In this document: in pieces, positions 412-22,307 of the stretch
How the letters are laid out: every line of letters starts with the position of its first letter
How positions within the stretch are numbered: position 1 is the stretch's first letter
Virus record (IMG/VR): IMGVR_UViG_2851949629_000003
DNA length: 22,307 nucleotides
Direction: 5' to 3' (one strand)
From: a virus
Taxonomy: Duplodnaviria > Heunggongvirae > Uroviricota > Caudoviricetes
Translations under genes and position numbers: made by a program
Notes under the pieces: generated by a model
What the model was told of the DNA's origin: nothing
Seen by the model: only the letters and a program-made list of their open reading frames with translations
Databases searched by the model: none

Positions 412-886
412 ATGTCTGCACCTGCACTGCCTGATGTCAGAACAGTATTTTGATGAATTGCCAAGGTTACAATGGCACAAATACGGCACAGGAGGAAACG
501 TGGTGTATTTAAATATGGGGTAACTCTTTGATTTGATAATAGGAACAAAACAAACAATAAAAACACATTGATATATAAAGATATTTTCACGTTACATCTT
601 TGGAGATACCCCCAAAAGTACCCCCAAACAATTTTCTCTCACCACCATTTGCACATAAAGCAGCCATGTACAACTGGTAGTTGAACAGGCGGGTAGACCG
701 TTCGTTCAGTAAATACCTGATATTTCCGCCAACGAGAAATTGCGTTGGCTGGCAGAGTGCAAATTTGCACGATGACCTAACCCATTGATTCTTTCGAAAA
801 CCTGCAATGCAGGAAGCCGGATAACACCATTTTTATAGCTCCGATCCCTTCAAAGTGAGGGGTAATTTGCCAAAACAGAGAGAGCA

Positions 887-1174
887 TTACTGTCTCTGGC
901 AATCTTTATCGCGATAACGCCTGAAGTACCCTCTCGCTTCCTCATCCATACCAAGAGCCGAATGAGTCCGCTTAACTGCCTGTCTTAAATCTCCGAATCT
1001 GTCTGTAGTTGCTGGTGGGCGTGCCGCCTTACGGATACATTCAGAGCGTCTGTTTGCTGCATGTTCACGTTCTTTATCGCCATCTGCCAGCATCATGACT
1101 TCTGCCCATCGTGCGGCAGCTCTCCGGTATAGCCCTTTTGACTCCAGTTCTTCAGCTTTCCTGTCCCTTATCAT
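887..1174 (-). CDS. PerC/Pch-family transcriptional activator-like protein (95 aa)
   Basis: ATG at 1174 with GAGAGG Shine-Dalgarno 5 nt upstream on the minus strand. The motif LESKGLYRRAAARWAEVM matches the PerC-family signature as I recall it. Confidence 0.65.
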   Translation of the reverse strand: MIRDRKAEELESKGLYRRAAARWAEVMMLADGDKEREHAANRRSECIRKAARPPATTDRFGDLRQAVKRTHSALGMDEEARGYFRRYRDKDCQRQ

Positions 1175-3343: not shown

Positions 3344-4522
3344 TTATTGAGCTTCTTTTTGTGATGCCTGTGCGACTCTGGTGAGCGATTGTGTGACCGT
3401 ACTGATCGCTCTGTCATATGCTGTGCTACCTTTTGGCGTATTTGCCAAACGTAACAAGGCATTTCGTATAACAGGGCTTTCGTATGCCTTCGCGGCTCCG
3501 CCTACGGCACCAGCAGCAGGAACAACAAACGCAGCCGTTTTTAGCATCCCCGCTAATACTGCTGCGTTTATGATGCCACCACCAACTAACAATCCATAAA
3601 GCTGCTGACCATTTAAGTTTTGAACGTTCGCTTTTGCCGCGTGTCTTGTATCGTTGAGGTATTTAATAACGCCGTCCAGTTCCTTTCCATGTACGCCTTT
3701 AAAGAAAGTTGCTGATTGCTTCCTGTTCCGGTGTAACGCATTAATAAACTTCTCAACACTGATATTTCCAGACGGATCAGTCGCCTTATCTACAGCATTC
3801 TGAACTATGGCTGCTCGTGCGTTTTGCCTACCATTGTCATCCAGAAGCCTGTAAAGCTGAGAACGTTCTGATGGGCTTTGGCTAAAAACGAGTTTTGTTA
3901 CATCCTCAGGCGTGGCCTTGCCGCTGGCTATTGCCTTTTGAACGCGCGTTCTTCCCATCATGTCATTGAATTTAGACCATGAGCGATCAACCCTTGCCAT
4001 ATTAATGGCTTCGTCTGCTCCAAGATTTTTGGCTACGGCTTTTTTCATATCCGCCGTATATGCCTTGTAGATAATATCGCTGGCTTTCTGGAGCGTATCT
4101 TTATCAACAGTGTCAGATGACGCCATAAACCGCTTTCGAAGATCGGTTCTGTTTTCCCTCGCCAGACGCAGGTCATTTGGTCCGCTGGTGATATCGTCTT
4201 TAAATTGCTGCAAGACTTTTACCGCGGCTCTATCCTGAGATTTACCCGGGCGGCTTAACACAGCAATCTGATTGTCGATAGCTTTTACCGTGTTTGAGAG
4301 ATCGACAGGGGTATCCCCCATAGCGTCAATTATGCGGTTATATCGCTTTCCTGCTGCCTCAATGAATTTTTGTTGCCCTTTAGTCGCAGATTCATAAAGC
4401 TGTTTATCAGAAATGCCACCCAGACCATCGCTAAATGTTCTGACTAAATTTTCTCGTGCTTGTTGTTGATTCAGCCGATTCTTACCGGTTCCAAAAAAAG
4501 GAACTCTTTCGCCTAATGTCTG
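3344..4522 (-). pseudogene. 3' portion (392 codons) of a ~701-codon Q/A-rich gene split by IS66 copy 1
   Basis: The track ORF 3344-4321 stays open upstream with no stop to the IS boundary at 4522/4523. It is in frame with 7063-7989 once the IS and one target-duplication copy are removed. Confidence 0.7.
4515..4522. repeat. Left 8-bp target-site duplication AATGTCTG of IS66 copy 1
   Basis: Identical to 7055-7062, immediately outside the element ends. Confidence 0.85.
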
Positions 4523-4552
4523 GTAAGCGTTAACGGAGTGCCGTATTGACGC

Positions 4553-6166
4553 TTATTTATTGGTGAGTACTACGTTCCATGGCAGGAGTTCGTCAACTCG
4601 GTTGGAAGGCCATTCCGGCAGTACGCTCAGGATATGGCGCAGATACGCTTCCGGATCGATACCGTTCAAACGGCAGGTGCCGATCAGCCCGTACAACAGT
4701 GCTCCACGCTCGCCGCCGTGATCGCTGCCAAAGAACATAAAGTTTTTCTTTCCGAGACAGACTGCACGAAGCGCTCTTTCCGCAGCATTATTATCCGCCT
4801 CCGCCAGACCGTCATCACTGTAATAACAGAGGACATCCCACTGATTCAGTACATAGCTGAACGCTTCGCCCAGTCTGGATTTTTTCGACAGCGTACCATT
4901 CTTCTCCACCATCCATTCATGCAGCGACGTCAGTAACACTTTGCTTCGCTGCTGCCTGACCGCCAGGCGTTCAGACACCGGCAACCCGCGTATTTCGTGC
5001 TCAATGGCGTACAGTTCACTGATTCGCTTCAGGGCTTCTTCTGCCGTCGCACTTTTGCTGCTGATGTATACATCGTGGATTTTTCGCCGGGCATGGGCCC
5101 AGCACGCAACTTCTGTCAGTGCACCACCTTCACGTTCTGCACTGAACAACCTGTCGTAACCTGTGAACGCATCCGCCTGCAGGATACCCCGGAAGGGGCG
5201 GAGGTGTTGCTCCGGGTGTTTCCCCTGCCGGTTCGGCGAGTACGCGAACCAGACCGCTGGAGGAGATGACGAACCCACATTGCGATCATCCCGGACATAC
5301 GTCCAGATACGCCCTGTTTTCGCCTTTTTCTGACCCGGTGCCAGTACCTTTACCGGTGTGTCATCAGTGTGAACCTTGCGGGTGTTCATTACATAACGGT
5401 ACAGGGCATCATTCACCGGTGTCATTAACTGGCAGCACGCGTCAACCCAGTTGGAGAGTAAGGCCCGGCTCAGTTCGACACCCTGGCGGGCAAAGATTTC
5501 ACTCTGACGATACAGTGGCAGATGTTCGCAGTATTTTCCCGTTAACACGCGGGCAAGTAATCCGGGGCCCGCGATACCACGCTCTATCGGGCGGGACGGC
5601 GCCGGTGCTTCAACAATACAGTCACATTTTGTACAGGCTTTTTTTACCCGTTCTGTGCGGATCACTTTCAGGGCACTGCTCACCAGTTCCAGCTGTTCAG
5701 CGCTGACTTCCCCCAGATAATCCAGCTCACCGCCACACTCCGGGCAACAGCTTTCTTCTGGCTCCAGGCGGTGTATTTCACGGGGAAGGTGTGCCGGTAA
5801 CGGACGACGATGGCGCGACTGTCGCAACTGGCGGGGAACCTGAGGATCGTCTTCCCGCCCACTGTAACGATCGCTGTCCTGTTCACGTTGTTTCAGCAGA
5901 GCCTCAGCCAGTTCAACTTCACGACGCAGTTTTTCAGAACGGGTACCGAACAGCATCCGGCGCAGTTTTTCTATCTGAGCCCGCAGATGTTCTATTTCCC
6001 GTTCATCTTCTTCGATCTTTTCTTCGGCACGTGTCAGTGCAGAGCGCAGGAAGGCTTCCGTCTCTTCAACCAGACTCAGTTGCTGGTCTTTCTGACGGAG
6101 GGCTTCAGCCTGCTCAGAGAGCAACCTTTCCAGCTCTGCGATGCGAATGAGGTATTTCTGACTCAT
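4553..6166 (-). CDS. tnpC: IS66-family transposase TnpC (537 aa)
   Basis: Long ORF with coiled-coil N-terminus and Cys-rich zinc-finger-like segment (CPECGG...CTKCDC), typical IS66 ORF3 layout. About 90% identical to the second copy. Confidence 0.9.
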   Translation of the reverse strand: MSQKYLIRIAELERLLSEQAEALRQKDQQLSLVEETEAFLRSALTRAEEKIEEDEREIEHLRAQIEKLRRMLFGTRSEKLRREVELAEALLKQREQDSDRYSGREDDPQVPRQLRQSRHRRPLPAHLPREIHRLEPEESCCPECGGELDYLGEVSAEQLELVSSALKVIRTERVKKACTKCDCIVEAPAPSRPIERGIAGPGLLARVLTGKYCEHLPLYRQSEIFARQGVELSRALLSNWVDACCQLMTPVNDALYRYVMNTRKVHTDDTPVKVLAPGQKKAKTGRIWTYVRDDRNVGSSSPPAVWFAYSPNRQGKHPEQHLRPFRGILQADAFTGYDRLFSAEREGGALTEVACWAHARRKIHDVYISSKSATAEEALKRISELYAIEHEIRGLPVSERLAVRQQRSKVLLTSLHEWMVEKNGTLSKKSRLGEAFSYVLNQWDVLCYYSDDGLAEADNNAAERALRAVCLGKKNFMFFGSDHGGERGALLYGLIGTCRLNGIDPEAYLRHILSVLPEWPSNRVDELLPWNVVLTNK

Positions 6167-6196
6167 GACCGTTTTTATAATGCGGTCAGGAGTTTT

Positions 6197-6547
6197 TTAC
6201 AACATTGTCAGTGAGTTACGGCTGGATGTTTTTGGCTGACGCCAGTCCAGCTTATCGAGGAGCATTGCCAGTTGCGAGCGGGTAATGGATACCTTGCCGT
6301 CACGTACCGCAGGCCAGATAAACTGGCCTTCCTCCAGGCGTTTGGTGAACAGGCACAGACCATCAGCATCAGCCCAAAGAATTTTGACGGTGTCACCCCG
6401 TCGGCCACGGAAGATAAACAGGTGACCGGAGAAGGGATTATCATTCAGCACATGTTGTACCTGTTCTCCCAGTCCGTTGAAGGATTTACGCATATCGGTA
6501 ACGCCGGCAACGAGCCAGATACGGGTACCTGATGGGAGTGAGATCAT
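6197..6547 (-). CDS. tnpB: IS66-family TnpB accessory protein (116 aa)
   Basis: Middle ORF of the IS66 triplet. Its start overlaps the tnpA stop (6544-6547). Confidence 0.85.
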   Translation of the reverse strand: MISLPSGTRIWLVAGVTDMRKSFNGLGEQVQHVLNDNPFSGHLFIFRGRRGDTVKILWADADGLCLFTKRLEEGQFIWPAVRDGKVSITRSQLAMLLDKLDWRQPKTSSRNSLTML

Positions 6548-6969
6548 CTTCCCCTCCCGGTCAGTTCACGGATCAACACTGTGAGCAGCTCTGGCGATGG
6601 ATTTTCCAGCGTCATGTTACCGTGACGGAATTCCACCTTGCAGGAACTGGCACTGACTCTGGTCTGAGTGGAAGTGGATAAAGACGGCGCAATGGCCGCC
6701 ACAGGTTCTTTCTGCTCATCCGGCGTTATTTCTACAGGTAATAATTCAACGCCAGTGTCAGAAGAGGTCGTTACCGGAAGACGCCGCGAAACACGCCCTT
6801 CGTTCTGCCAGAGCCTGAGCCATTTGAAAATAACATTATCATTGACGCCATTTTCACGTGCAATCTGTGCAACACAAGCTCCAGGTTGTGATGCCAGTTC
6901 CACCATACGAAGTTTGAATTCATTCGAATAGTTTTTACGAGGTTCTTTTCGCCAGTCCTGTAATTCCAT
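6544..6969 (-). CDS. tnpA: IS66-family TnpA (141 aa, helix-turn-helix)
   Basis: First ORF of the IS66 triplet, with a conserved N-terminal DNA-binding-like segment (FKLRMVELASQPGA...IFKWLRLWQ). Confidence 0.85.
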   Translation of the reverse strand: MELQDWRKEPRKNYSNEFKLRMVELASQPGACVAQIARENGVNDNVIFKWLRLWQNEGRVSRRLPVTTSSDTGVELLPVEITPDEQKEPVAAIAPSLSTSTQTRVSASSCKVEFRHGNMTLENPSPELLTVLIRELTGRGR

Positions 6970-7054
6970 ACTTAGATGTCCGTCTATATCAGATGGGCGT
7001 CTAAGTTACCAATTCTCGTCTGATGGCTACATACGGCGGTCAGTTTACGCTTAC

Positions 7055-7062
7055 AATGTCTG
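7055..7062. repeat. Right 8-bp target-site duplication AATGTCTG of IS66 copy 1
   Basis: Identical to 4515-4522. Confidence 0.85.
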
Positions 7063-7989
7063 AGCCTGACTCTGCATAAAGGTTTTATCTTTCAGCATGT
7101 CACTGGTCATTAACGGCAGATTTCTTTCCGATGCAAAGTCGACAGCAGCCTTTGCTTCAGGCGACATATCACCACGAACAGCCCTCGAAACCGCACTCGC
7201 TGTATTTTCCAGCCCCTTACCAATACCACCAATGCCAGCAGAAATTACCGTTTGTAACGGATCAATATCTTCTCCACCAGCGAGGCTGGTGGCTCCCTGT
7301 AGTGCTAAATCTGTAGCTGCTGATTTCCCTATGGCCCCCAGCACCGTTCCGGCCCTGCCCGCTGGTGTAAACGCCAGCGCATTAGCCAGAAACGATGCCA
7401 CGTCTTGCGGCGATAAACCCGGCTTGTTCAGAGCATAATCACCGGATGGCAGGGAAACGATAGTGTTACCCTTCTCATCCTGCCTTAATTTCGCTCCCAT
7501 GCTCTGAAGAATCTTTTCCTGAGATGCGTCAGAGCCGAAAAGTTGAGACCATCGAGTTTTTAGAGCATCCATGCTGAGTGAGGTTAACTCTGGGGCAAGG
7601 TCGACATTTTGCAGTCTCTCCATCTCTGGAGTCATTCGGCTTTCGCCTGTTATAGCATCGCGCATCGCAGCCCCAAGGCTGGCTCCCTGTTCTGCTGAAC
7701 GCTCAAGCCCCTCTCTTTGCTGAGTAGCTAACTTTGCATACCCTGACGCAAGAGAATTATCAGATGATGTATGTTGAATATTTTGAGTTGCTGATTGGGC
7801 TCGGTCTATTTCATTCGTTGATGGTAGTGGATAGGCAGCATAAAAAGCCTGCTTAGCCTGCTCTACACTTTCTCCGGCTTGCGGGGCAACGACTTCATTG
7901 AAGTATTGCTCCTGAGCCTGCGCTTTTTGTTCTGGTGCTAACGCCTGATACTGTGGAGAAGCGATAACATCTTTCCATGCTTTAGCCAT
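7055..7989 (-). pseudogene. 5' portion (native codons 7063-7989, 309 aa) of the IS-split ~701-codon gene
   Basis: ATG at 7987-7989 overlaps the upstream stop (TAATG). The apparent stop at 7051-7053 lies inside the IS terminus. Frame continues into 4522 when the IS is excised. Confidence 0.7.
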
Positions 7990-9410
7990 TAATCACCCCA
8001 TAGTGAAGAAAAGTTACTGCTGGCTGCTGGCTGTGATACCTGCTCAGATTGCGGCAATGTCTGCGACGAAGAAGAAGTTCCTCTGTCAACTGCTGAAATA
8101 ACCCGCAAAGCATCATAAGCTCGACCAGAAGCAGCTTTCAGCGAATTGAACTGGTTTTCCATCTTCCGGCGCTTGGTATCAATGGTTTTTGTGGAGTCGC
8201 CAGGCTGAGGGAAATACATTTGATAATATTTTGACATTTCAGCAGGTACGATAGCTGCCCCTGTTTCCTGACGGAGTATTGCCATTATTGCGTCATTAGC
8301 ATTAACAACGTATTGCTGCTCTGTTGGGCTGAGCGTTAAGTTAGCCAGCGTCCCATTACCCAAAGCATTATTAATGATCGCCACTCGCTGTGGGCTAAGC
8401 TGGTCTTTCAGTGTATCTATTGAATCAAGAGCATCCCTAACCCTGTATGCAAATCCAGCAGCTTTTTTAGCCCCTTCTGGCGACTTTTCCATGATCTTTT
8501 GGGCTGTTGGCAAAGCTATTGGACGAAACCCATCTCCAGATATTGGCTGGTTTAGTTTTCCCTGCTCTTCACTTCCGTCTGTGTAGTATTTTGTGACAGT
8601 GCCATCATCGTTTTCTCTAACACTCATTAATTTTTTGGCGTTTGTATTAATTCCAGCCGCTGCCGCAAATGCCGCCGCCCCCTCTGGATCCTCCTTTAAC
8701 ATTTGAGCGTACTGATTGTAATTCTGCATTGCTGCTGTTGGTGCATATGCTGACGTTAACGCATTTGCTCGGCTAATATCCTGCCCTCTCGCCTGAAGTG
8801 CTTCGCCAGCCTGATTGCTGCGGATTGTTTCTGCCAACTTGCCACGCTCAATATCCCGACCTTCCATTTGATCTTTGATATCGAAATACTTCTCATGACC
8901 GAGAGAAAACAGTGCCATACTACCAGCAAGCCGCTGGAATCCCTGTGGATCATTAACATGCATTTCGGCAACAGACTCAGGAGAAATTCCCAAGCGACGC
9001 ATTTCATCTTCGTTATCTGCTATGAATTTTCCAAATGCCCCAGTTCCGAGCGAAGATGCGATTTGAGCACTAGTCGCAAGATGACCAATAGAATTTCTCT
9101 GGTCGTCATCAATAAAGCCCATCCCTTTCTGAACGCTTTCAAATTCTTCTGGATACTCAGAAATAAGACTGCGCATTTTGTTTCTGTCTCCAGACTCAAA
9201 AGCCCCGGCATATGCTTTCTGAAACTCTGCTTTACGCTGTTGTTGACGTGCCTGCTGATTAATCTCAGCAACGCCTCTTAGCCCCTGTAGCGCCATTAAA
9301 CCTACGTTTGGCTGCTGCTGATACTGCACAGGCTGAGGAACGGAAGAACGAGGAGCATTATCATTTTGCGGTGCCATGCTAGGCAGCCCGCCAAGTTGCC
9401 ATGTCGCCAT
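7989..9410 (-). CDS. Q-rich low-complexity protein (473 aa); possible phage ejection/DNA-transfer-type protein
   Basis: Coupled to both neighbours by TAATG overlaps at 9410 and 7989. Q/A-rich, coiled-coil-like composition. Family assignment is inference. Confidence 0.75.
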   Translation of the reverse strand: MATWQLGGLPSMAPQNDNAPRSSVPQPVQYQQQPNVGLMALQGLRGVAEINQQARQQQRKAEFQKAYAGAFESGDRNKMRSLISEYPEEFESVQKGMGFIDDDQRNSIGHLATSAQIASSLGTGAFGKFIADNEDEMRRLGISPESVAEMHVNDPQGFQRLAGSMALFSLGHEKYFDIKDQMEGRDIERGKLAETIRSNQAGEALQARGQDISRANALTSAYAPTAAMQNYNQYAQMLKEDPEGAAAFAAAAGINTNAKKLMSVRENDDGTVTKYYTDGSEEQGKLNQPISGDGFRPIALPTAQKIMEKSPEGAKKAAGFAYRVRDALDSIDTLKDQLSPQRVAIINNALGNGTLANLTLSPTEQQYVVNANDAIMAILRQETGAAIVPAEMSKYYQMYFPQPGDSTKTIDTKRRKMENQFNSLKAASGRAYDALRVISAVDRGTSSSSQTLPQSEQVSQPAASSNFSSLWGD

Positions 9411-10087
9411 TAGAATCCAAGCCCCCCAACAAGACCAATAAGCCCACCACCAATAGCCCCGGCGACATTACCTATACCCGGAACAACGGAACCAAGTTGC
9501 GCACCCGCTAAAGCGCCTGATGCCGCCCCACCAATACCACGCGCAAGACTGGATGGCTGCTGCGCCTGACCTGCACGAATAGCGCCAAGCCCCTGCAAGA
9601 GTTGCCCGGTATTATTGGCGTAGTTTTGCCCTGCTGTTGCCTGCCCTGATGCCGCATTCATCCCGACATTTAGCAGGTTTCCATAATTTTGCATTTGCCC
9701 ACTGAGCCAATTGTTATAAAGCATGGGCGCAATGGAAGATAACTGGTTACTGGTAGCTGTTGAGCCAAGCCCCCCGGTAGCTTCTGCTGAGACAAGGTTC
9801 TGATAACGGGCCTGATCTGCCTGTGTTTTATATAAACCAGAACCAAAGAAATCATTCGCGGCTTTATTCTGCCCTTCCAGAGTCATCAGTCCTTGTAGTT
9901 GTTGTAAAGCAGGCAATCCGACTTCTGCATACGGCTTGAGATTATTCATCACCGTATTCCACTGCTCGCGCTGCAAATCAATTGCCTGCTGCTGGGCCTT
10001 CGCCTGAGCTTTAGAGGCACCACCATCACCGCCTTTTTCGTATACGGCACGATTGAGATGTTTATGAGCTATATGGGTAATTAACAT
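9410..10087 (-). CDS. Gly/Gln-rich protein with glycine-zipper-like hydrophobic C-terminus (225 aa); possible ejection-type protein
   Basis: Start overlaps the upstream stop by 7 nt (ATGTTAA). C-terminus GIGGAASGALAGAQLGSVVPGIGNVAGAIGGGLIGLVGGLGF. Confidence 0.75.
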   Translation of the reverse strand: MLITHIAHKHLNRAVYEKGGDGGASKAQAKAQQQAIDLQREQWNTVMNNLKPYAEVGLPALQQLQGLMTLEGQNKAANDFFGSGLYKTQADQARYQNLVSAEATGGLGSTATSNQLSSIAPMLYNNWLSGQMQNYGNLLNVGMNAASGQATAGQNYANNTGQLLQGLGAIRAGQAQQPSSLARGIGGAASGALAGAQLGSVVPGIGNVAGAIGGGLIGLVGGLGF

Positions 10088-10542
10088 TCGCTGAGTTCCT
10101 TATATTGTTGCCGTGTTAACTGATAAAGCGTTACGCCGACGGGTTTACCACATCTGATATATGCATCGGCCAGGTGACCAACACGGGTAGCGCCAAGCAA
10201 ACGGATAATTGCCCGTCCGTATTTCGTGGTGTCAGGAACCATGGTGATGCTGTTAAGGAATGGTGAGTTTTCGAGAAGCCATTTGCAGAACAATCGATGC
10301 CCTTGCAGTGCATATTCACCACGGAATCCGGGGTCGTACACCGCATGGCATTCAACAATGCTATGCCAGAAGTTACGCACTTCATGAACGCCTGTCAGCA
10401 CTAATCCTTCGTAGATGCCGAGATATACCGCATCAGGCTTGATGTAGTACGTGTGCCCCGGCTCAACAATATTTTCGGTATTGCCAGGCTCGTTAAGAAA
10501 GGCCTGTAATCGCACCGGGTTATCAATAAATTTTAGTTCCAT
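10081..10542 (-). CDS. Hypothetical protein (153 aa), first large gene of the cassette
   Basis: ATG at 10542 with weak GGATGG Shine-Dalgarno. Coupled to the downstream gene. Confidence 0.7.
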   Translation of the reverse strand: MELKFIDNPVRLQAFLNEPGNTENIVEPGHTYYIKPDAVYLGIYEGLVLTGVHEVRNFWHSIVECHAVYDPGFRGEYALQGHRLFCKWLLENSPFLNSITMVPDTTKYGRAIIRLLGATRVGHLADAYIRCGKPVGVTLYQLTRQQYKELSEC

Positions 10543-10558
10543 GCGGTGCCATCCGTTT

Positions 10559-10720
10559 TCACATACAGCCTGCCAGCGCCTTATCTATTAACCCTCGTGC
10601 AATTTCATGCAGAGTTGGCGCTACTCCAATTCCTGATTTTTTACGCTGCTCTTCCTGAATTTTCTTTATCGCTTCCATTTGCTTCTCACTTATCAATACC
10701 GGCTTTACTGAAATAGCCAT
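10559..10720 (-). CDS. Small hypothetical protein (53 aa), possible leader or small regulator of the cassette
   Basis: Not in the supplied track (under 60 aa). ATG at 10718-10720 preceded by AAGGGGG. Translates to MAISVKPVLISEKQMEAIKKIQEEQRKKSGIGVAPTLHEIARGLIDKALAGCM. Stop is 17 bp before the 10542 start. Confidence 0.4.
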   Translation of the reverse strand: MAISVKPVLISEKQMEAIKKIQEEQRKKSGIGVAPTLHEIARGLIDKALAGCM

Positions 10721-10738
10721 AACGCCCCCTTAGAACTG

Positions 10739-10790
10739 TATAAAACAACAGTTATTATAGTTTCGCAAATCGCAATATTCATCATCGTAA
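10739..10790 (-). promoter_or_regulatory. Candidate sigma70 promoter for the cassette operon
   Basis: Minus-strand TATAAT (plus 10754-10759) about 34 nt upstream of the 10720 ATG. The -35 is weak, with two TTGCGA repeats nearby. Confidence 0.25.
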
Positions 10791-11160: not shown

Positions 11161-11286
11161 CACATTGTGTTGGTTCAAAATACCGTGTTGTTGGTTCAGT
11201 GTTGGTTCAATAAAAAGAATAAAATCATTATAAAACAATACTCTTTACAAATTGAACCAACTGAACCAACTGAACCAACACCTTTT
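11161..11286. repeat. Iteron cluster B: three GTTGGTTCA units (11169-11209) and three tandem TGAACCAAC units (11253-11279); inverted copy of cluster A, directly 3' of the primase gene
   Basis: Read directly. 11242-11286 is the exact reverse complement of 1204-1248. Confidence 0.75.
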
Positions 11287-11304: not shown

Positions 11305-14064
11305 TCATTCTTCAGATGAGTTATAATCTCCTGGCTGGTAATTGAGTACATAAACGTTTATTTGTCGTCCCTGAATACGTGGTGATTTTCTTTGGTATCC
11401 ACGACCGCTGTTTGGTGGGGTTAGCATCCCGGCTTTTTTCAACACTTCAGCAAACTGTTTTGCGTTGAAACCACATGCGATCTCCTTTTCAAATGTGGCC
11501 GGGAATGTGTAGAAAATCATTGGGCTTTCGTCATGTTCTCCACGCTGACGGTATCCGGCTAAATCTTTGATGGGCAAATCTGCCGGGCTGTATGGAAATG
11601 GTGCAAAACGGCTAAGCCCATAGGCATTAAGAAATGCCTCCGTTTGTTCAATAATCTGCTGATGTTCTTTGTTACCTGTGCCGAACTCGCGCAACCATGC
11701 GTTATAGCTGTGCTGTATCGCATCACGGCATGTCTGAGCATCCCAGCCTGTTACAACCTCGCCTAACAGCAATGCGGCCTCCAGAATGGCAAATCGCGCG
11801 GCTACACGGTGAACCTGCTCACCATAATCGGATGGGATCAGACTTCTCCATCTGCTTTCGCAGTCACGAACAGTTTTAATTGCCTGTTGCTGGTGGTCTG
11901 CCAGCCATTTAATCCACTCACGCCCGGCTGCGCCGTGGTGATGCTGGTAAGCGTCTTTCAGTGCGTCTGCGTGCTGTTTTCCGTTCTGGTAATCGTGAAA
12001 GCGTACTGCTTTACTCAACGGAATATTCAGCAGTCGCACCAGTTGCCCGGCTTTGGTTTTTCGCCCGGAAGTAGCGATAAATGTTTCTAAATCCATTTCT
12101 CCGGTGCTGATTGCCACTGTACGCCAGCGTTTTAGATCCCGGTTTCCACCATCTTTAGCGCCTTGCAGTTTCCCTACACCGTTAAATAACGCATAGGCAG
12201 ACTGTGAAACGCTGACAGGATCTGCGCCCTGACCAACTTCATCAAGCGGCATTAGTCCGTCATTGTGGGCGGCAGCTTCATTTGCCAGCCCCAGCGCGGT
12301 TCCGTACCACGTCAGCCGCAGTAAATCAGGGTTGCCGTATAAGCTGCTCGCCACGTTTGCCGTGGTGGTCTTACCTGCGCTCGACTGCTCATAGAAATGA
12401 ATGCCGAACCCGTCAGCGCCCACCAGCCCAATCAATGGCGCTGCCAGTGCTGCGCCGATCCCGGTCATCATTGAATAGTTACCAAAGGCCAGACGCGCCA
12501 CGCTATCACGCCAGCTTTTCGCGCTCCCTGAGATAGTATATCCGGCTGCGGCTGAGCTTCTCCCGCTGAACAGCACAGGATTTTCAGGTGTTCCGATGAT
12601 TTCCCCATCAGGCATGATGTACGCTCCGCATTGCCAGCCAGTGGCATGAGCAACACGCCACAATTCACGAGAGCCACTGCGTTGTAGCCAGTCTGCCAGT
12701 ATTGCTCTGAGGCTGCTTTTGGTCGTGACATTTACCCCACCAGCTTTAAGTGTGCGCCATCCTTCACGTTCACCAATATCAGCCAGTGGAATGGCAGCGG
12801 TTGTCGGCGTTTCAGAACCAAACGACAGCCAGCGAAGAATGAGATACTGGTCTTTATCGTCTCTGCCAGTACCGATAACGCTTAACGGAGAACATAACCA
12901 GCTTTCGTTATTGATGATTTCTCCACTCTGGCTGTCAGCTCTCGGAGATACCCAATAAATACCATCCTCGCGGCTTTCTATTCTTGGTTTCAGTGGGTCG
13001 GTATCCATAACCTTAAAATCGCTTCCTTCAATGGTCTGTGGCTCCTGTTTCACGCCATTACCCTGTGGTTGGTACATTGATTTATTGAACGCTTCTGTAG
13101 CGCATTTAATGCCGTGTTTTTGGTGGTAATCATTCCAGTCTGCTTTGTGATCTGTCGGGGGTAATGCCACCCATCCAGAAACAGATAAAGCTGCTTTTTC
13201 TGCTGCTATTCTCCCCGTGTTTTGTCTTCCTTCGCTGTGGTCGTTATCCGCAGCAATGATGATTTGTGCTGAAGGAAATTTATCCCGCAGTACCTGGGCG
13301 ACATATAACAGGTTCCCGGCATCAATCGCCGCCACTGTCAGCGCCTCTGGACGAATTAAATGGGCAGATAATGCCGTTGCCAGCCCTTCTGCGATTAAGA
13401 TGCTCTGTGTTGTTTCTGGTGCGTTTATGGCGTGATATGCCCCTCGCTTTGCTGAACCTGTCAGGAGTCTTTTTTCACCATGTGAGGTAATAGTCTGTGC
13501 TGCTGTTACTGCGCCGGATTTATCCACCAGCGCCAGCAACAGAGATCCATCGGGCAACACGGGGAATGTAAAATCACCTACCCCTTTCGCAACCAGATAA
13601 TCAGATTTGCCGTTTACAGCCTTTCTGCGCATGTCATCAAACTGACGGGAAAACGTATCCCGTCTTTGTTGTTCGTCCTTCTCTGCCCTTTTCAGGCGCT
13701 CCTGTTCGCGTCGCTGGCGCTCGGTTTCCAGTTGTTCCCGTTTCTGGCTGGTGGCTTCTGGTGTTTCCGTTGTCCGGTAATCAATACCCAGAACATCAGC
13801 GGCAAGAAGCGCCGCCTCTGTTGTGTCGCAGTTATTTACGCGTTTAATTAAATCCAGCCCATCACCAGCGCCGCACTGATTACAGATGAAGCTACCGCGC
13901 CCGTTGTCATCGAACCGGAATCGATCTTTACCCCCACATGCAGGGCAGGGAGCATGACGGCGTGGAGAGTCAGGGACATTTATGTTCAGGCAGCCCAGCA
14001 CATGAGGCCAGTTGTTTTCAGACGCACTGATAACCTGACGGATAAGATCAATGTTTCGCATCAC
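11305..14064 (-). CDS. Primase-helicase (P4 alpha-like architecture: zinc ribbon + TOPRIM + P-loop NTPase), 919 aa
   Basis: Zinc ribbon CPACGG...CNQCG near the N-terminus, TOPRIM-like acidic motif IIIAADNDH, P-loop-like SAGKTTT. GTG at 14064 or ATG at 14061. Iterons lie immediately downstream. Confidence 0.85.
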   Translation of the reverse strand: MMRNIDLIRQVISASENNWPHVLGCLNINVPDSPRRHAPCPACGGKDRFRFDDNGRGSFICNQCGAGDGLDLIKRVNNCDTTEAALLAADVLGIDYRTTETPEATSQKREQLETERQRREQERLKRAEKDEQQRRDTFSRQFDDMRRKAVNGKSDYLVAKGVGDFTFPVLPDGSLLLALVDKSGAVTAAQTITSHGEKRLLTGSAKRGAYHAINAPETTQSILIAEGLATALSAHLIRPEALTVAAIDAGNLLYVAQVLRDKFPSAQIIIAADNDHSEGRQNTGRIAAEKAALSVSGWVALPPTDHKADWNDYHQKHGIKCATEAFNKSMYQPQGNGVKQEPQTIEGSDFKVMDTDPLKPRIESREDGIYWVSPRADSQSGEIINNESWLCSPLSVIGTGRDDKDQYLILRWLSFGSETPTTAAIPLADIGEREGWRTLKAGGVNVTTKSSLRAILADWLQRSGSRELWRVAHATGWQCGAYIMPDGEIIGTPENPVLFSGRSSAAAGYTISGSAKSWRDSVARLAFGNYSMMTGIGAALAAPLIGLVGADGFGIHFYEQSSAGKTTTANVASSLYGNPDLLRLTWYGTALGLANEAAAHNDGLMPLDEVGQGADPVSVSQSAYALFNGVGKLQGAKDGGNRDLKRWRTVAISTGEMDLETFIATSGRKTKAGQLVRLLNIPLSKAVRFHDYQNGKQHADALKDAYQHHHGAAGREWIKWLADHQQQAIKTVRDCESRWRSLIPSDYGEQVHRVAARFAILEAALLLGEVVTGWDAQTCRDAIQHSYNAWLREFGTGNKEHQQIIEQTEAFLNAYGLSRFAPFPYSPADLPIKDLAGYRQRGEHDESPMIFYTFPATFEKEIACGFNAKQFAEVLKKAGMLTPPNSGRGYQRKSPRIQGRQINVYVLNYQPGDYNSSEE

Positions 14065-17091: not shown

Positions 17092-17267
17092 TTGTTAACC
17101 TCCGCGAACTCCTTCATGAAACGTGCCAGCGGTTGTACGCATGGCGATTGATACCCGTCGCGATAAAACGTCACTCGGTTGTGAGACACGCTTTCGACAG
17201 TAACGAGTGCTCCGTGGGCATCTTTGTAGCGTTTTTGAGGTTGTGGTGTTCCTGTCGGCTTAAACAT
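17085..17267 (-). CDS. Hypothetical small protein (60 aa from MFKPTGT...; track ORF extends to 17354)
   Basis: ATG at 17265-17267 with GGAGG Shine-Dalgarno. Overlaps the upstream stop by 8 nt. Confidence 0.5.
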   Translation of the reverse strand: MFKPTGTPQPQKRYKDAHGALVTVESVSHNRVTFYRDGYQSPCVQPLARFMKEFAEVNKC

Positions 17268-17984
17268 GGACCGCCTCCAGACGCTTGGCGAGCCAGCGTT
17301 GCGACAGGCGGGTGAGTTCTCCTTTGCGCTGCTCATATTCCATGCCCATATCAATTAACGTGATATTGGTGCTTTCGAGATATGAGAGGTGCTCAAGCTG
17401 TTCTGCGTTCATATGGTCGCGAGGTTCGCCAGAATAGCCATTTATCCGCGCCCACTGCTTAGCAGTTAGCCCACCAAGAACGATACGAGAAATCATATTG
17501 CTCTCGTTTGTGTAGTGGTGTTGCTGCGTCGTTTTCCCCATCTCGGCACGGGCCATATTCAGCGCATCGCACATTGGCTTAAAGTTGTTTGCGGCACTGA
17601 TACGGGCTTTTAGCTGGCGACGATAGCGGGCGGCGATTTCAGGCACGCTACGCTGTAATTCTTCCTCGCACTGGATGAAATAACGGCGGATAGCGCGACC
17701 CTGATCATTGCGTTCGATCATTGCCAGTTCTTTTGCCATTCCGACACTTAACAGATAGTCTTTACCGGGTCTGCCAGAGTGCTTAATCTTGCTGTAAGCC
17801 GCGCTATTCGGGCTTTTCCCCAAATTTGGGGAAATAGTTTTATGGACTGAGTAATCGTGCCCAATGGTGAAGTCATATTCAGAGATGCGATCAGTGATCC
17901 ATGTAGAGAAGTCTTTTCCCACGCCCAACGCTTTGTGTAACGCTTTTGCGCTAACAATATTGGTTTCACGCCCACCTATATGAC
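17260..17984 (-). pseudogene. AntA-domain (phage antirepressor-type) gene, 5' end removed by IS66 copy 2
   Basis: Motifs SAKALHKALGVGKDFSTWI and GRPGKDYLLSVGMAKELAMIERNDQGRAIRRYFIQCE fit the AntA-type N-terminal domain as recalled. The frame is open from inside the IS terminus with no ATG or GTG start and no Shine-Dalgarno; the track's start is a TTG. Confidence 0.6.
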
Positions 17985-18014
17985 GTAAGCGTCAACGGAG
18001 CACCGTATTGACGC

Positions 18015-19628
18015 TTATTTATTAGTGAGTACTACGTTCCATGGCAGGAGTTCGTCAACTCGGTTGGAAGGCCATTCCGGCAGTACGCTCAGGATATGGC
18101 GCAGATACGCTTCCGGATCGATACCATTCAACCGGCAGGTGCCGATCAGCCCGTACAACAGTGCACCACGCTCGCCGCCGTGATCGCTACCGAAGAACAC
18201 GTAATTTTTCTTTCCGAGACAGACTGCACGAAGCGCTCTTTCCGCTGTGTTATTGTCCGCCTCCGCCAGACCGTCATCACAGAAGTTGCACAACGCAACC
18301 CAGTGCTTCCTGATATACCGGAACGCATCTCTCAGACGGCATTTTTTCGATAACGTGTGTTCTTTCTCCTGCATCAGCTTATACAGGGAAGTCAGTAGCG
18401 GTTTACTCTGCATTTGCCTGACCGCCAGGCGTTCAGACACCGGCAACCCGCGTATTTCGTGCTCAATGGCGTACAGTTCGCCGATTAGTTTCAGTGCTTC
18501 TTCCGCCGTCGCGCTTTTGGTACTGATATATACATCGTGGATTTTGCGCCGCGCATGAGCCCAGCATCCTGCTTCCGTCAACGCGCCGCCTTCACGTTCG
18601 GCACTGAACAGCCGATCGTAACCTGCGAACGCATCTGCCTGCAGGATACCCCGGAAGGGACGAAGGTGTTGCTCCGGATGTTTACCCTGATGGTCCGGTG
18701 AGTAGGCGAACCAGACCGCCGGAGGTTCTGGCGAACCGGCATTTCGGTCATCCCGGACATACGTCCAGATATATCCTGTTTTCGCCTTCTTCCTGCCCGG
18801 TGCCAGTACTTTTACTGGTGTGTCATCAGTGTGAACCTTGCGGGTGTTCATCACATAACTGTACAGGGCATCATTCAGCGGAGTCATTAACTGGCAGCAC
18901 GCATCAACCCAGTTGGAGAGTAAGGCACGGCTCAGTTCGACACCCTGGCGGGCAAAGATTTCACTCTGACGATACAGTGGCAGGTGTTCGCAGTATTTTC
19001 CCGTTAACACGCGGGCAAGTAACCCCGGGCCCGCGATACCACGCTCTATCGGACGGGATGGTGCCGGTGCTTCAACGATGCAGTCACATTTTGTACAGGC
19101 TTTTTTTACCCGTTCTGTGCGGATCACTTTCAGGGCGCTGCTCACCAGCTCCAGTTGTTCTGCGCTGACTTCCCCCAGATAATCCAGCTCACCGCCACAC
19201 TCCGGGCAACAGCTTTCTTCAGGCTCCAGGCGGTATATTTCACGGGGGAGATGTGCCGGTAACGGACGACGATGGCGCGACTGTCGCAACTGGCGGGGAA
19301 CCAGCGGGTCATCCTCACGCCCACTGTAACGATCGCTTTCCTGCTCGCGTTGTTTCAGCAGGACTTCAGCCTGTTCAACCTCACTACGCAGTTTTTCAGA
19401 ACGGGTTCCGAACAGCATCCGGCGCAGTTTTTCTATCTGAGCCCGCAGATGCTCTATTTCTCGCTCATCTTCTTCGATCTTTTCTTCGGCACGTGCCAGT
19501 GCAGAGCGCAGGAAGGCCTCCGTCTCTTCAACCAGACTCAGTTGCTGGTCTTTCTGACGGAGGGCTTCAGCCTGCTCAGAGAGCAGCCTTTCCAGCTCAG
19601 CGATGCGAATGAGGTATTTCTGACCCAT
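18015..19628 (-). CDS. tnpC: IS66-family transposase TnpC (537 aa), copy 2
   Basis: Collinear with the copy-1 TnpC, about 90% identical by eye. Confidence 0.9.
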   Translation of the reverse strand: MGQKYLIRIAELERLLSEQAEALRQKDQQLSLVEETEAFLRSALARAEEKIEEDEREIEHLRAQIEKLRRMLFGTRSEKLRSEVEQAEVLLKQREQESDRYSGREDDPLVPRQLRQSRHRRPLPAHLPREIYRLEPEESCCPECGGELDYLGEVSAEQLELVSSALKVIRTERVKKACTKCDCIVEAPAPSRPIERGIAGPGLLARVLTGKYCEHLPLYRQSEIFARQGVELSRALLSNWVDACCQLMTPLNDALYSYVMNTRKVHTDDTPVKVLAPGRKKAKTGYIWTYVRDDRNAGSPEPPAVWFAYSPDHQGKHPEQHLRPFRGILQADAFAGYDRLFSAEREGGALTEAGCWAHARRKIHDVYISTKSATAEEALKLIGELYAIEHEIRGLPVSERLAVRQMQSKPLLTSLYKLMQEKEHTLSKKCRLRDAFRYIRKHWVALCNFCDDGLAEADNNTAERALRAVCLGKKNYVFFGSDHGGERGALLYGLIGTCRLNGIDPEAYLRHILSVLPEWPSNRVDELLPWNVVLTNK

Positions 19629-19658
19629 GGCCGTTTTTATAATCCGGCCCGGCGTTTT

Positions 19659-20009
19659 TTACAACATTGTCAGTGCGTTAAGGCGGGATGTTTTTGGCTG
19701 ACGCCAGTCCAGCTTATCGAGGAGCATTGCCAGTTGCGAGCGGGTAATGGATATCTTACCGTCATGCACCGCAGGCCAGATAAACTGACCTTCCTCAAGG
19801 CGTTTGGTGAACAGGCACAGACCATCAGCATCAGCCCACAGGATTTTAATCGTGTCTCCCCGTCGGCCACGGAAGATAAACAGGTGACCGGAGAAGGGGT
19901 TATCATCCAGCACATGCTGTATCTGCTCCCCCAGACCGTTGAAGGATTTACGCATATCAGTAACGCCGGCAACGAGCCAGATACGGGTACCTGATGGGAG
20001 TGAAATCAT
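19659..20009 (-). CDS. tnpB: IS66-family TnpB (116 aa), copy 2
   Basis: Collinear with the copy-1 TnpB. Confidence 0.85.
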   Translation of the reverse strand: MISLPSGTRIWLVAGVTDMRKSFNGLGEQIQHVLDDNPFSGHLFIFRGRRGDTIKILWADADGLCLFTKRLEEGQFIWPAVHDGKISITRSQLAMLLDKLDWRQPKTSRLNALTML

Positions 20010-20443
20010 CGTCCCCTCCCGGTCAGCTCACGGATCAACACCGTGAGCAGCTCTGGTGAAGGATTTTCCAGCATCATTTTACCGTAATGGAATTCCACAT
20101 GGCAGGAAGCTGCACAAGCAACTGATAATGCCTCCGGAGCAGGAGCATCTGTAGCACAGCGCGGGGTGTCGATAAGTTCCACTGGAACCAGAGTCGGAGA
20201 GGCCGGAAAAGATTGTGATACTGTAGGGCCTACAATAGTTGGAGGCATTCTACGAGAAATACGTCCTTCTCTTTGCCAGAGGCGTAGCCATTTAAAAATC
20301 AGGTTGTTATCAACGCCATGTTCCCGGGCCAGTTGTGCAACATTGGCATTTGGTTTCGAAGCCAGTTCAACCATATGAAGTTTAAATTCATTAGAAAATA
20401 TCCGGCGGGTTCCGGAGCGCCAGTCTGTAGGTTTATCCATCAA
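20006..20443 (-). CDS. tnpA: IS66-family TnpA (145 aa), copy 2
   Basis: Conserved N-terminal segment (FKLHMVELASKP...IFKWLRLWQ); middle region diverged from copy 1. Confidence 0.85.
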   Translation of the reverse strand: MMDKPTDWRSGTRRIFSNEFKLHMVELASKPNANVAQLAREHGVDNNLIFKWLRLWQREGRISRRMPPTIVGPTVSQSFPASPTLVPVELIDTPRCATDAPAPEALSVACAASCHVEFHYGKMMLENPSPELLTVLIRELTGRGR

Positions 20444-20521
20444 TAGAACTCCGTCTAATTTAGAAGGAGCTCTAATTTAGTCTGCAAGGAGCAGGTGTTA
20501 CAGACGGCATTGGCTTTACGC

Positions 20522-20665
20522 TTACACAAAAGCAATTGCCCGACTTCCAATTTTTACCTGTTTAGGGAACCTCCCCTGACTAATAAGACGATAAATCCAT
20601 GCTTTGCTATAACCAGTTCGCCTTTGAACTTCAGAGAGACGAATTAATGAATTGTAATTAGCCAT
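20522..20665 (-). pseudogene. alpA: alpA-like (AlpA-family helix-turn-helix regulator) gene, 3' end truncated by IS66 copy 2
   Basis: Not in the track (47 codons). ATG at 20663-20665 with AGGA upstream. Translates to MANYNSLIRLSEVQRRTGYSKAWIYRLISQGRFPKQVKIGSRAIAFV; the stop codon is supplied by the IS terminus. Intact AlpA-family proteins are about 65-70 aa, so roughly 20 codons are missing. Confidence 0.6.
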
Positions 20666-21092: not shown

Positions 21093-22307
21093 TCATGCGT
21101 GTTTTTCAAACACCATATGCACCACATTTCCGCCATGCTCGAGAGAATCCATATAGTCGGCATACCATTGAAGCATCTCCCGCCGTCCATCCAGATATTG
21201 CGCATGGTTGTATGTGCCACGAATTGAGTTCTTATCAACGTGAGCGAGCTGCGTTTCTATCCACGCGGTGTTATAGCCCTGCTCATGCAAAATCGTGCTC
21301 ATAGTGTGTCGGAACCCATGACCAGTTACACGTCCAGCGTAGCCAATGCGCTTAAACACTTGGTTTATGCTGGCCTCACTCATTGTTTTCCTTGGATCAT
21401 TGCGCCCGGGAAACATAAGAGGGTAATTGCCTGTTATTTCTCTAATCTTCCCAATAAGCGAAAGAGCCTGCTCAGACAATGGCACAATATGAGGCCGCCG
21501 CATTTTCATACGTGAAGCGGGTATCTCCCATATAGCCTTGTTGAAATCAATTTCATCCCATAATGCGCCACGTAGTTCGCCAGTTCGCAAGCCGGTGATA
21601 ATCAGTAGGCGAGCCGCCATAACAACCAATGCGCTTCCTGAGTAACTGGATAATGCCTTGAAAAAATCAGGTAATTCTTTGGTCGTAAGGAAAGGGTAAT
21701 GATTAGATTCATGGCCTTGCATCGCGCTAGTAAGGTCTGGTGCAGGGTTATACTCTGCGCGACCAGTGACTATTGCATAGCGGAAAACTTCCCCGCACCG
21801 CTGCCTCACTTTTTTGGCTTTTTCTGTCGCACCGCGCCCCTCGATGCGCCGCAGCACATTCAGAAGTTCAAGTGGTTTGATTTCGGCGATTGGTTTTTTG
21901 CCAATGTAAGGGAACACATCTTTGTTGAAGGCTTCGAGGATGTCTGAAGCATAACCAGCAGACCATTTTTTTAATTTGCTGCTGTGCCACTCAAGGGCAA
22001 TATCTTTGAAGGTGTTGTTTAACTGCGTTTCCCGGGCAATCTTTTCCTCTCGTTTCGCTTCCATCGGATCGATACCACCAGCGATACCTCTTTTCGCATC
22101 TTCACGTTTTGCCCGAGCATCGGCTAGAGTAACCTCAGGATACACACCTAGTGCCAATAGCTTCTCTTTACCAGCTACACGATATTTAAGTCGCCAGTAT
22201 TTACCTCCATTAGGTTTTACCAAGAGATACAAACCGCCACCATCGGCCAGCTTGTAAGCCTTCTCTTTTGGCTTGGCTGTGTCTATTTGACGGGCATTGA
22301 GTTTCAC
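21093..22307 (-). CDS. int: P4-type tyrosine integrase (404 aa in window; N-terminus at or beyond the right edge)
   Basis: Catalytic-region motifs GLRTGELRGALWDEIDF, GHGFRHTMST and RGTYNHAQYL; N-terminal KPKEKAYKLADGGGLYLLVKPNGGKYWRLKY arm-binding-like segment. Start codon at the window edge is GTG, so the gene may begin outside. Confidence 0.9.
   Translation of the reverse strand: MKLNARQIDTAKPKEKAYKLADGGGLYLLVKPNGGKYWRLKYRVAGKEKLLALGVYPEVTLADARAKREDAKRGIAGGIDPMEAKREEKIARETQLNNTFKDIALEWHSSKLKKWSAGYASDILEAFNKDVFPYIGKKPIAEIKPLELLNVLRRIEGRGATEKAKKVRQRCGEVFRYAIVTGRAEYNPAPDLTSAMQGHESNHYPFLTTKELPDFFKALSSYSGSALVVMAARLLIITGLRTGELRGALWDEIDFNKAIWEIPASRMKMRRPHIVPLSEQALSLIGKIREITGNYPLMFPGRNDPRKTMSEASINQVFKRIGYAGRVTGHGFRHTMSTILHEQGYNTAWIETQLAHVDKNSIRGTYNHAQYLDGRREMLQWYADYMDSLEHGGNVVHMVFEKHA

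Follow-up and report, generated by a model that had tools for sequence, protein, structure and literature searches.

An ISEc23-like insertion sequence of the IS66 family almost certainly disrupts a P22-gp16-family gene of an EcCIMP1-like phage-inducible chromosomal island (PICI), as a recent knockout. The insertion itself is real and clean, nothing contradicts it, and it is probably recent. The window, meaning the whole stretch of 22,307 nucleotides that was analysed, holds the features collected in Table 1.

Table 1. Features in the window (positions counted from its first letter)
Feature	Position	Strand	Basis or description
Distal core att TCCTATTATC of EcCIMP1-type islands, island end	535..544	-	sequence; PMC11773190
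3' part of gp16-family gene	3344..4522	-	codons 310-701 and stop, left duplication counted as native
Target site duplication, left copy AATGTCTG	4515..4522	.	sequence
ISEc23-like IS66-family insertion sequence (copy 1), 2532 bp	4523..7054	-	ends GTAAGCGT, tnpA/tnpB/tnpC
IS66 tnpC transposase, 537 aa	4553..6166	-	NF033517, E 8.4e-135, 449.7 bits, cutoff 180
IS66 tnpB, 116 aa	6197..6547	-	NF033819, E 1.6e-35, 120.9 bits, cutoff 50
IS66 tnpA, 141 aa	6544..6969	-	ISRel24-type model NF047595, 83 bits, cutoff 74
Target site duplication, right copy AATGTCTG	7055..7062	.	sequence
5' part of putative P22-gp16-family ejection protein gene	7055..7989	-	codons 1-311 and two bases of codon 312
gp20-type ejection protein gene, 473 aa	7989..9410	-	PF16928, E 5.7e-58; directly upstream, same operon
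gp7-type ejection protein gene, 225 aa	9410..10087	-	PF25688, E 1.9e-72
gp14-type DUF2824 gene, 153 aa, opens the block	10081..10542	-	PF11039, E 1.7e-60
Second IS66-family copy, 85% identical to copy 1	17985..20525	-	without target duplication

Removal of positions 4523-7062 in silico leaves one ORF of 2106 nt on the minus strand, running from 7989 to 3344. It has 701 codons plus a stop and zero internal stops, just as an earlier note on this DNA had claimed. The called 312-aa ORF (7051-7989) corresponds exactly to native residues 1-312 and carries no foreign residues. In the disrupted gene, codon 312 consists of TT from the gene and G from the IS, and the stop that follows is the TAA within the IS terminus GTAAGCG. 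The called 325-aa ORF (3344-4321) begins at the internal Met377, which is why codons 313-376 (4322-4513) appear in neither ORF call. The strongest hydrophobic, Gly/Ala-rich segment of the reconstructed protein, at about residues 617-650, lies within the 3' part. The earlier note had also described the gene as split "exactly in frame". This is correct in the sense that excision restores the frame, but not in the sense of translational read-through: together, IS and duplication measure 2540 bp, a length not divisible by 3, so that the ribosome could not read across the element in frame.

The uninterrupted form of the gene is common. The reconstructed 2106-nt sequence was found as one aligned piece in 398 of the 5426 complete E. 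coli genomes, and an exact 80-mer spanning the intact insertion site was present in 293 of 329 records. The best intact alleles differ at 2 of the 2106 bases (99.9% identical) and by one amino-acid change; the nearest ones checked, in EC5502 and EC38, are one residue off the reconstructed protein. For one intact allele the annotation gives a single CDS of 701 aa (WP_001399942.1), and a newer annotation of the intact allele reads "P22-gp16 family phage DNA ejection protein". The exact reconstructed 701-aa protein was absent from a collection of 15 billion proteins.

The claim that the 312-aa and 325-aa ORFs are two parts of a single gene is thus borne out by the intact alleles, and by the end-to-end family matches described below. 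The competing idea, that they are naturally separate genes with an IS merely lying between them, could draw on their separate database entries, with the 325-aa product named "injection domain protein" and present on 70 contigs, and on PHROG families that match one half only (phrog_29864 over residues 65-411, phrog_29117 over residues 377-701). Yet the uninterrupted 701-codon ORF is the norm among genomes, and phage homologues are single ORFs over residues 1-700. The other contigs with the 325-aa ORF carry the same gene broken in other ways, by 1-nt deletions or by Mu-like genes abutting the C-terminal fragment. With the intact alleles and the phage homologues, this idea is already refuted, and we leave it virtually no probability.

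The earlier note had suggested using the reconstructed protein as a homology query. This query returned the PHROGs family phrog_770, "DNA transfer protein", end to end (residues 19-700). By tblastn, residues 1-700 aligned at 31-33% identity to ST104, over gene 16, and to Sf6, and residues 210-683 aligned to P22 gene 16 (E 4e-39). The reconstructed protein had no Pfam or NCBIfam match at default thresholds and none among solved structures, and a precomputed match of the gene to PF26808 (Phage_P22_gp16) is recorded merely as "faint". The family placement is therefore based on the PHROGs and tblastn matches, from which the predicted product of the broken gene is a DNA-ejection protein of the P22 gp16 family. 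The order of the block is gp14-gp7-gp20-gp16, with the broken gene as the last of the operon.

The interrupting element is a member of the IS66 family, as had been proposed for 4523-7054. Its gene assignments rest on NCBIfam models with their own bit-score cutoffs, which matched TnpA, TnpB and TnpC. The element is 98.9-99.3% identical to copies labelled "ISEc23 family" by NCBI annotation. The three genes are consecutive, all three ORFs are intact, and they are oriented as the interrupted gene. The inverted ends are imperfect: both begin with GTAAGCGT and agree at 20 of their first 24 bases. GTAAGCG, a terminal motif typical of the IS66 family, opens the terminal inverted repeats of this copy and of three other ISEc23 copies. 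A right boundary lying further out was considered, as plasmid matches seemingly continued 11-25 bases past the end, and was rejected as chance similarity of the flanks; the plasmid IS copies that were inspected each have the identical 2532-bp ends.

Both ends of the element are directly abutted by AATGTCTG, so the claim that the flanking 8-mers are identical is confirmed without a mismatch. Two flanking 8-mers would be identical by chance with a probability of 4^-8, or about 1.5e-5. The 8-mer occurs four times in the window, against 0.95 expected, and the remaining two sites, at 411 and 8056, bear no relation to the IS. A T7 run sits 10 bases downstream of the duplication. We rejected this run as a slippery or programmed frameshift site and as a common point of decay. 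Frameshift alleles are rare, because probes at the run counted 293 exact T7, no exact T6 and one CT7 among complete genomes; some of the frameshift alleles may be homopolymer sequencing errors.

Repeated elements are a classic cause of misassembly, and IS66 elements are present in most of these genomes, with 3 matching places per genome as the median and two copies in the window. In principle, the assembly could have misplaced a copy of the repeated IS into the gene, which would make the junction an artefact. A misassembly, however, is not expected to yield a perfect 8-bp duplication, of a length typical of this IS. Furthermore, the right-hand junction between gene and IS recurs, up to 30 bp into the IS, in two independent short-read assemblies. 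We consider an artefact extremely improbable. These two assemblies, from sequencing runs ERR1937317 and ERR1937320, were the only other places where the truncated 312-aa product was found; their contigs match the window at 100% identity and end 30 bp into the IS. A 300-nt probe of the gene-IS junction had no match in any of the 5426 complete E. coli genomes, and the exact 29-nt junction pattern was absent from the GTDB species representatives.

In the sequence of events that we propose, an ISEc23-like element transposed into the gp16-family gene and duplicated the 8-bp target AATGTCTG. The protein is cut short after residue 312 of 701 by the stop from the IS terminus, and the C-terminal 389 codons, with the main hydrophobic segment, have no start signal of their own. 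Because of this truncation and the missing start signal, the gene would be knocked out, and a loss of function of its product can be predicted from the sequence. Other genes are not expected to suffer polar effects, because the gp16-family gene is the last in the operon. The insertion is in this sense a clean knockout of the ejection gene and an ordinary event.

The event is probably recent and restricted to a narrow lineage. Only 2 of 2106 bases separate the two parts from intact alleles, and neither a secondary stop nor an indel has arisen; the two duplication copies match perfectly, and the IS retains its three ORFs. The junction is missing from all complete genomes searched, and the truncated product was seen in only two other sequencing runs. 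The earlier note had argued for recency from the intact duplication and from the preserved frame. Its conclusion stands and so does the first argument, but the second falls away, since any clean insertion with a target duplication restores the frame and frame restoration thus says nothing on age. "Recent" is meant here in a relative sense and not as a date, because the nearest island (best complete-genome match 99.0% identical over 10.9 kb) and the closest IS copy (99.3%) indicate that neither the immediate ancestor nor the donor copy is among the genomes searched.

An old insertion in a decaying pseudogene, within an island that is generally degrading, would be in line with the second IS66 and its 616-bp loss in the same island copy, and with the frameshifts and insertions that other islands carry in this gene or in gp20. 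We regard it as very improbable, because neither half contains a stop or an indel and both are closer to intact alleles (99.9%) than the rest of the island is to its best match (about 99.0%), while the duplication is perfect and the insertion absent from the 5426 complete genomes.

The disrupted gene belongs to an EcCIMP1-like PICI located at tRNA-Thr, between the proA and pao genes. The island extends from position 535 beyond the right end of the window, and its tRNA end lies just outside. Gene order and flanks of EC38, EC5502 and MP1 match the window, and in all three TCCTATTATC is found at both island ends. The gene content includes int, alpA, antA, ash and a primase, without capsid, terminase, tail or lysis genes. 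We also considered a degraded P22-like prophage, and rejected this identity on account of an architecture that is conserved in many genomes and matches an experimentally described PICI. EcCIMP1 is a PICI of E. coli MP1 (Pick, Stadel and Raivio 2025, PMC11773190), and its mobilisation by the helper phage Kapi1 was shown experimentally (PMC11773190). In that work the genes of the ejection block are listed only as packaging candidates (PMC11773190).

The second IS66 replaces 616 bp that are present in intact islands: antA lacks its 5' end, alpA lacks its 3' end, and a gene of 143 aa is missing altogether, so that alpA and antA are both truncated. As the end of alpA has been removed, this island copy is probably immobile, and helper-dependent excision and transfer have probably been lost. 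This one island has two distinct IS66-associated lesions, of which one hits the master regulator alpA, and independent knockouts of the gp16-type gene occur elsewhere. Both observations could suggest that the disruption was selected and is no neutral accident, for example if the host or a helper phage gained from silencing a satellite ejection protein. The gp16-type gene is nevertheless intact in the great majority of genomes, and the other knockouts were found by a biased route, through exact matches to the 325-aa fragment. Selection is therefore very improbable, and we retain the ordinary, recent IS knockout as the explanation.

Gene-splitting IS insertions with a target duplication are routine, and the IS, gene and island families are already described. 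In itself, one more ordinary IS knockout, in an element already known, matters little. It does correct the annotation, as a single pseudogene underlies the 312-aa and 325-aa "genes". Moreover, it provides a natural pair of alleles, intact and IS-disrupted, for testing the role of the ejection block in EcCIMP1-like satellites. A complete P22-type ejection set (gp14, gp7, gp20 and gp16) is intact in hundreds of E. coli genomes, on a satellite without capsid or packaging genes. One tentative and rather doubtful idea is that such satellites equip hijacked helper virions with DNA-delivery proteins of their own, or use these proteins to poison the helper virions. If ejection proteins do enter helper virions, the IS66 insertion would be a natural knockout of that function.

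Compared with known systems, the element shares with ISEc23 its length of 2532 bp, the gene order tnpA-tnpB-tnpC, the GTAAGCGT termini and the duplication of an 8-bp target. The same length and termini recur in three independent ISEc23 copies, each with an 8-bp duplication of its own (GCTGATAT, TATTTATC and GAAATCTG). Among the known ISEc23 copies searched none was identical to the one described here, which deviates at about 0.7% of its positions, including a few in the left terminus, and its insertion site is new.

Among the gene 16 proteins of P22-type phages, those of Sf6 and ST104 are homologous to the broken gene over its full length, and in these phages gene 16 stands after the homologues of gp14, gp7 and gp20, as it does in the island. 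The likeness may continue further, as a weak SieA-like gene follows the gp16-type gene of the island and sieA follows gene 16 in the P22 gene order. The island protein is, however, only about 30% identical to P22 gp16 and 67% identical to the closest phage protein, from phage N7, and at 701 aa it is longer than the 609 aa of P22 gp16. Furthermore, P22-type gp16 genes are borne by phages, whereas this homologue sits on a satellite that lacks capsid, portal, terminase and tail genes.

EcCIMP1 occupies the same tRNA-Thr site next to proA with an identical core att. Both islands contain, in the same order, int, alpA, antA, ash, a TOPRIM-DUF927 primase, the DUF2824, gp7-type and gp20-type genes, a third ejection gene and perC. 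As its third ejection gene, EcCIMP1 has another allele, of 906 aa and with a lytic transglycosylase domain. The island in the window has another cargo region and differs from EcCIMP1 by its two IS66 elements, one of which truncates alpA.

The 312-aa and 325-aa ORFs of this virus stretch are the two halves of one gene, split by an insertion sequence. The 8-mer AATGTCTG was found at both 4515-4522 and 7055-7062, directly abutting a 2532-bp IS66-family element (copy 1, 4523-7054). Identity of two given 8-mers by chance has a probability of approximately 1.5e-5. The motif occurs four times in the window (0.95 expected), and its two further sites (411 and 8056) are unrelated to copy 1. Both ends of the element start with GTAAGCGT, and the inverted repeats match at 20 of the first 24 bases. 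In silico removal of 4523-7062 gave a single minus-strand ORF of 701 codons plus stop, from 7989 to 3344. Thus, the identical flanking 8-mers and the restored ORF claimed in the earlier note were both recovered, and its coordinates were all right. The 312-aa ORF corresponds exactly to native residues 1-312, with the first G of copy 1 completing codon 312 and the TAA that follows it in the IS terminus serving as the stop. The 325-aa ORF starts at the internal Met377, and therefore codons 313-376 lie outside both called ORFs.

Copy 1 is ISEc23-like. Each of its three ORFs, all on the minus strand, has a match among IS66-family models, and the element is 98.9-99.3% identical to annotated ISEc23 copies from plasmids and chromosomes. 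Three ISEc23 copies from unrelated plasmids, each of 2532 bp and with the same termini, have their own 8-bp duplications (GCTGATAT, TATTTATC, and GAAATCTG), which independently confirms the boundaries of copy 1 and the 8-bp rule. Some matches suggested an element extending past the right end of copy 1, but this was merely a chance likeness of the flanks.

Features of the island and of copy 1 (window coordinates)
Feature	Position	Strand	Remarks
Integrase	21093-22307	minus	first in island order
alpA, antA, DUF4222 gene, ash, several small genes		minus	after integrase
TOPRIM-DUF927 primase	11305-14064	minus	
Four ejection-related genes		minus	after primase
perC	887-1174		in cargo region following ejection genes
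TnpA, copy 1		minus	141 aa; NF047595, 83 bits (cutoff 74)
TnpB, copy 1		minus	116 aa; 120.9 bits (cutoff 50)
TnpC, copy 1		minus	537 aa; 449.7 bits (cutoff 180)

That the two ORFs belong together, as the earlier note proposed, is borne out by the uninterrupted, one-piece gene in 398 of 5426 complete Escherichia coli genomes, the best intact matches being 99.9% identical across all 2106 bases. Compared with the EC5502 and EC38 reference islands, two bases differ, resulting in one amino-acid change (T145A). EC5502 is annotated with a single 701-aa CDS, and the newer annotation name of the intact allele is P22-gp16 family phage DNA ejection protein. Residues 19-700 of the reconstructed protein match phrog_770 (DNA transfer protein); searches of Pfam, NCBIfam, and solved structures gave no match. 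Other labels attach to parts of this protein: phrog_29117 (“head morphogenesis”) matches only the C-terminal residues 377-701, phrog_29864 (“transglycosylase”) only the N-terminal and central residues 65-411, and NC_002371.2 labels P22 gene 16 as “head morphogenesis”. These misleading annotations seem to have been seeded by split or mislabelled copies of the gp16-type gene.

We infer that the insertion truncates the product and removes its C-terminal part. The protein would end at residue 312 of 701, and the C-terminal 389 residues would be lost, including the strongest hydrophobic Gly/Ala-rich segment (approximately 617-650). The element plus its duplication add 2540 bp, therefore without read-through. 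A polar effect on other genes is not expected, because the gp16-type gene is the last in its operon. The TnpC frame of copy 1 is also that of the downstream gp16 fragment (4523-4555), with the TnpC stop codon and 11 sense codons lying between them. That the frame is shared is probably a coincidence, with a one-in-three chance; stop read-through, if it occurs, would fuse TnpC and the fragment. For annotation, the 312-aa and 325-aa ORFs should be treated as one pseudogene, which is also of use as a naturally occurring knockout in work on the ejection-protein block of these satellites.

The insertion was absent from the 5426 complete E. coli genomes, as searched with a probe of 300 nt that spanned the left junction, and the junction was not found in GTDB representatives. 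The exact 312-aa truncated product was present in two Logan assemblies (ERR1937317 and ERR1937320), with contigs 100% identical to window 7025-10747 and stopping 30 bp inside the IS; short-read assemblies break at repeats. These contigs rule out that the junction is a misassembly of the window only. Secondary damage is absent from both gene halves, which are 99.9% identical to intact alleles, versus 99.0% over 10.9 kb for the rest of the island and its best match. The undamaged halves, their closeness to intact alleles, and the rarity of the junction argue that the insertion is recent in relative terms and confined to a narrow lineage. To this extent the recent insertion suggested by the earlier note stands; its preserved-frame argument carries no weight alone, because any clean insertion is restorable.

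The 325-aa C-terminal ORF was found on 70 contigs, and in the examples examined the gene was broken in other ways: by Mu-like genes abutting coding-sequence position 1073, by assembly gaps, or by loss of a single nucleotide from the CCTTTTTTTGG run. This run (4490-4500, coding strand; coding-sequence positions 943-953) lies 10 bases downstream of the insertion-site duplication, and its 1-nt deletions, of two independent forms (T6 and CT7), split the gene into 325-aa and 325-aa ORFs in other assemblies. Probes of the complete genomes gave exact T7 in 293, CT7 in one, and exact T6 in none, out of about 329 records; therefore, the large majority of genomes have the gene intact. The frameshifts are rare, and represent sporadic mutations or, partly, homopolymer sequencing errors. 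Different lesions of the same block occur in other EcCIMP1-like islands (L013, 1-5945; L015, 3133-4360), where Mu-like early genes (transposase, AAA_22 ATPase, Gam, GemA, Mor) abut a gp16-type C-terminal fragment, and an IS3-family element lies inside the gp20-type gene.

Comparison with the EC38, EC5502, and MP1 islands ruled out a P22-like prophage and revealed an island of approximately 18.5 kb, integrated at the tRNA-Thr adjoining proA. A gene-content search found no capsid, portal, terminase, tail, or lysis genes. Two inverted copies of one ~130-nt block (1204-1336 and 11166-11286) are separated by 10 kb; in the block, three GTTGGTTCA repeats and three TGAACCAAC repeats flank an AT-rich spacer. 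Immediately 3' of the primase gene, the usual place of origins in phage-inducible chromosomal islands (PICIs), is one of these copies, and the other adjoins perC; two blocks of genes converge here, and each has a copy upstream of it. The repeated block looks regulatory or origin-like. In EC5502 the primase module is replaced by a DUF5906 type, yet the perC-side block is kept. The cargo region between perC and a SieA-like gene is variable (1845-2209, versus 12462-13866 in the EC38 locus, L001). In EC38 the region contains an Abi family gene, and in the window it is a shorter unrelated stretch, whose small ORFs gave no family match. Such variability fits a defence or cargo hotspot of the satellite.

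A second IS66-family element (17985-20525), merely 85% identical to copy 1, stands in place of 616 bp that the EC38, EC5502, and MP1 islands all have. No target duplication was found in its flanks (17260-17984 and 20526-20665), and the lesion resembles an adjacent deletion or a rearrangement mediated by the IS. The missing stretch covers the 5' end of antA, an entire 143-aa gene, and the final 20 codons of the master regulator gene alpA, whose product has 47 instead of 67 aa; its AlpA domain breaks off at position 43 of the 51-position model. EcCIMP1, the PICI of E. coli MP1, cannot be mobilised without alpA, and this copy of the island has therefore probably lost its mobility.

Overall, an ordinary IS66-family insertion has hit a known gene family in a known type of satellite island, and the event is not novel. 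The three genes upstream of the gp16-type gene are of the gp20, gp7, and gp14 (DUF2824) types, and the gene after it, on the opposite strand, has a weak SieA-like match. In P22 the gene order is 14-7-20-16, the same as in this block. The closest phage relative is a protein of phage N7 (67% identity); the homologues of Sf6 and ST104 (gene 16 in the latter) align over residues 1-700 with 31-33% identity, and P22 gene 16 aligns with residues 210-683 of the 701-aa protein (E 4e-39). By its gene layout, the island has the architecture of EcCIMP1; in experiments, EcCIMP1 needed the P22-like helper phage Kapi1 for excision and transduction, and also its own alpA and integrase (PMC11773190). The EcCIMP1 core att, TCCTATTATC (PMC11773190), is found at window 535, and the EC38, EC5502, and MP1 islands have it at both ends. 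The EcCIMP1 authors list the ejection block merely as a candidate packaging module (PMC11773190), and as its third ejection gene EcCIMP1 has another allele, of 906 aa and containing a transglycosylase domain.
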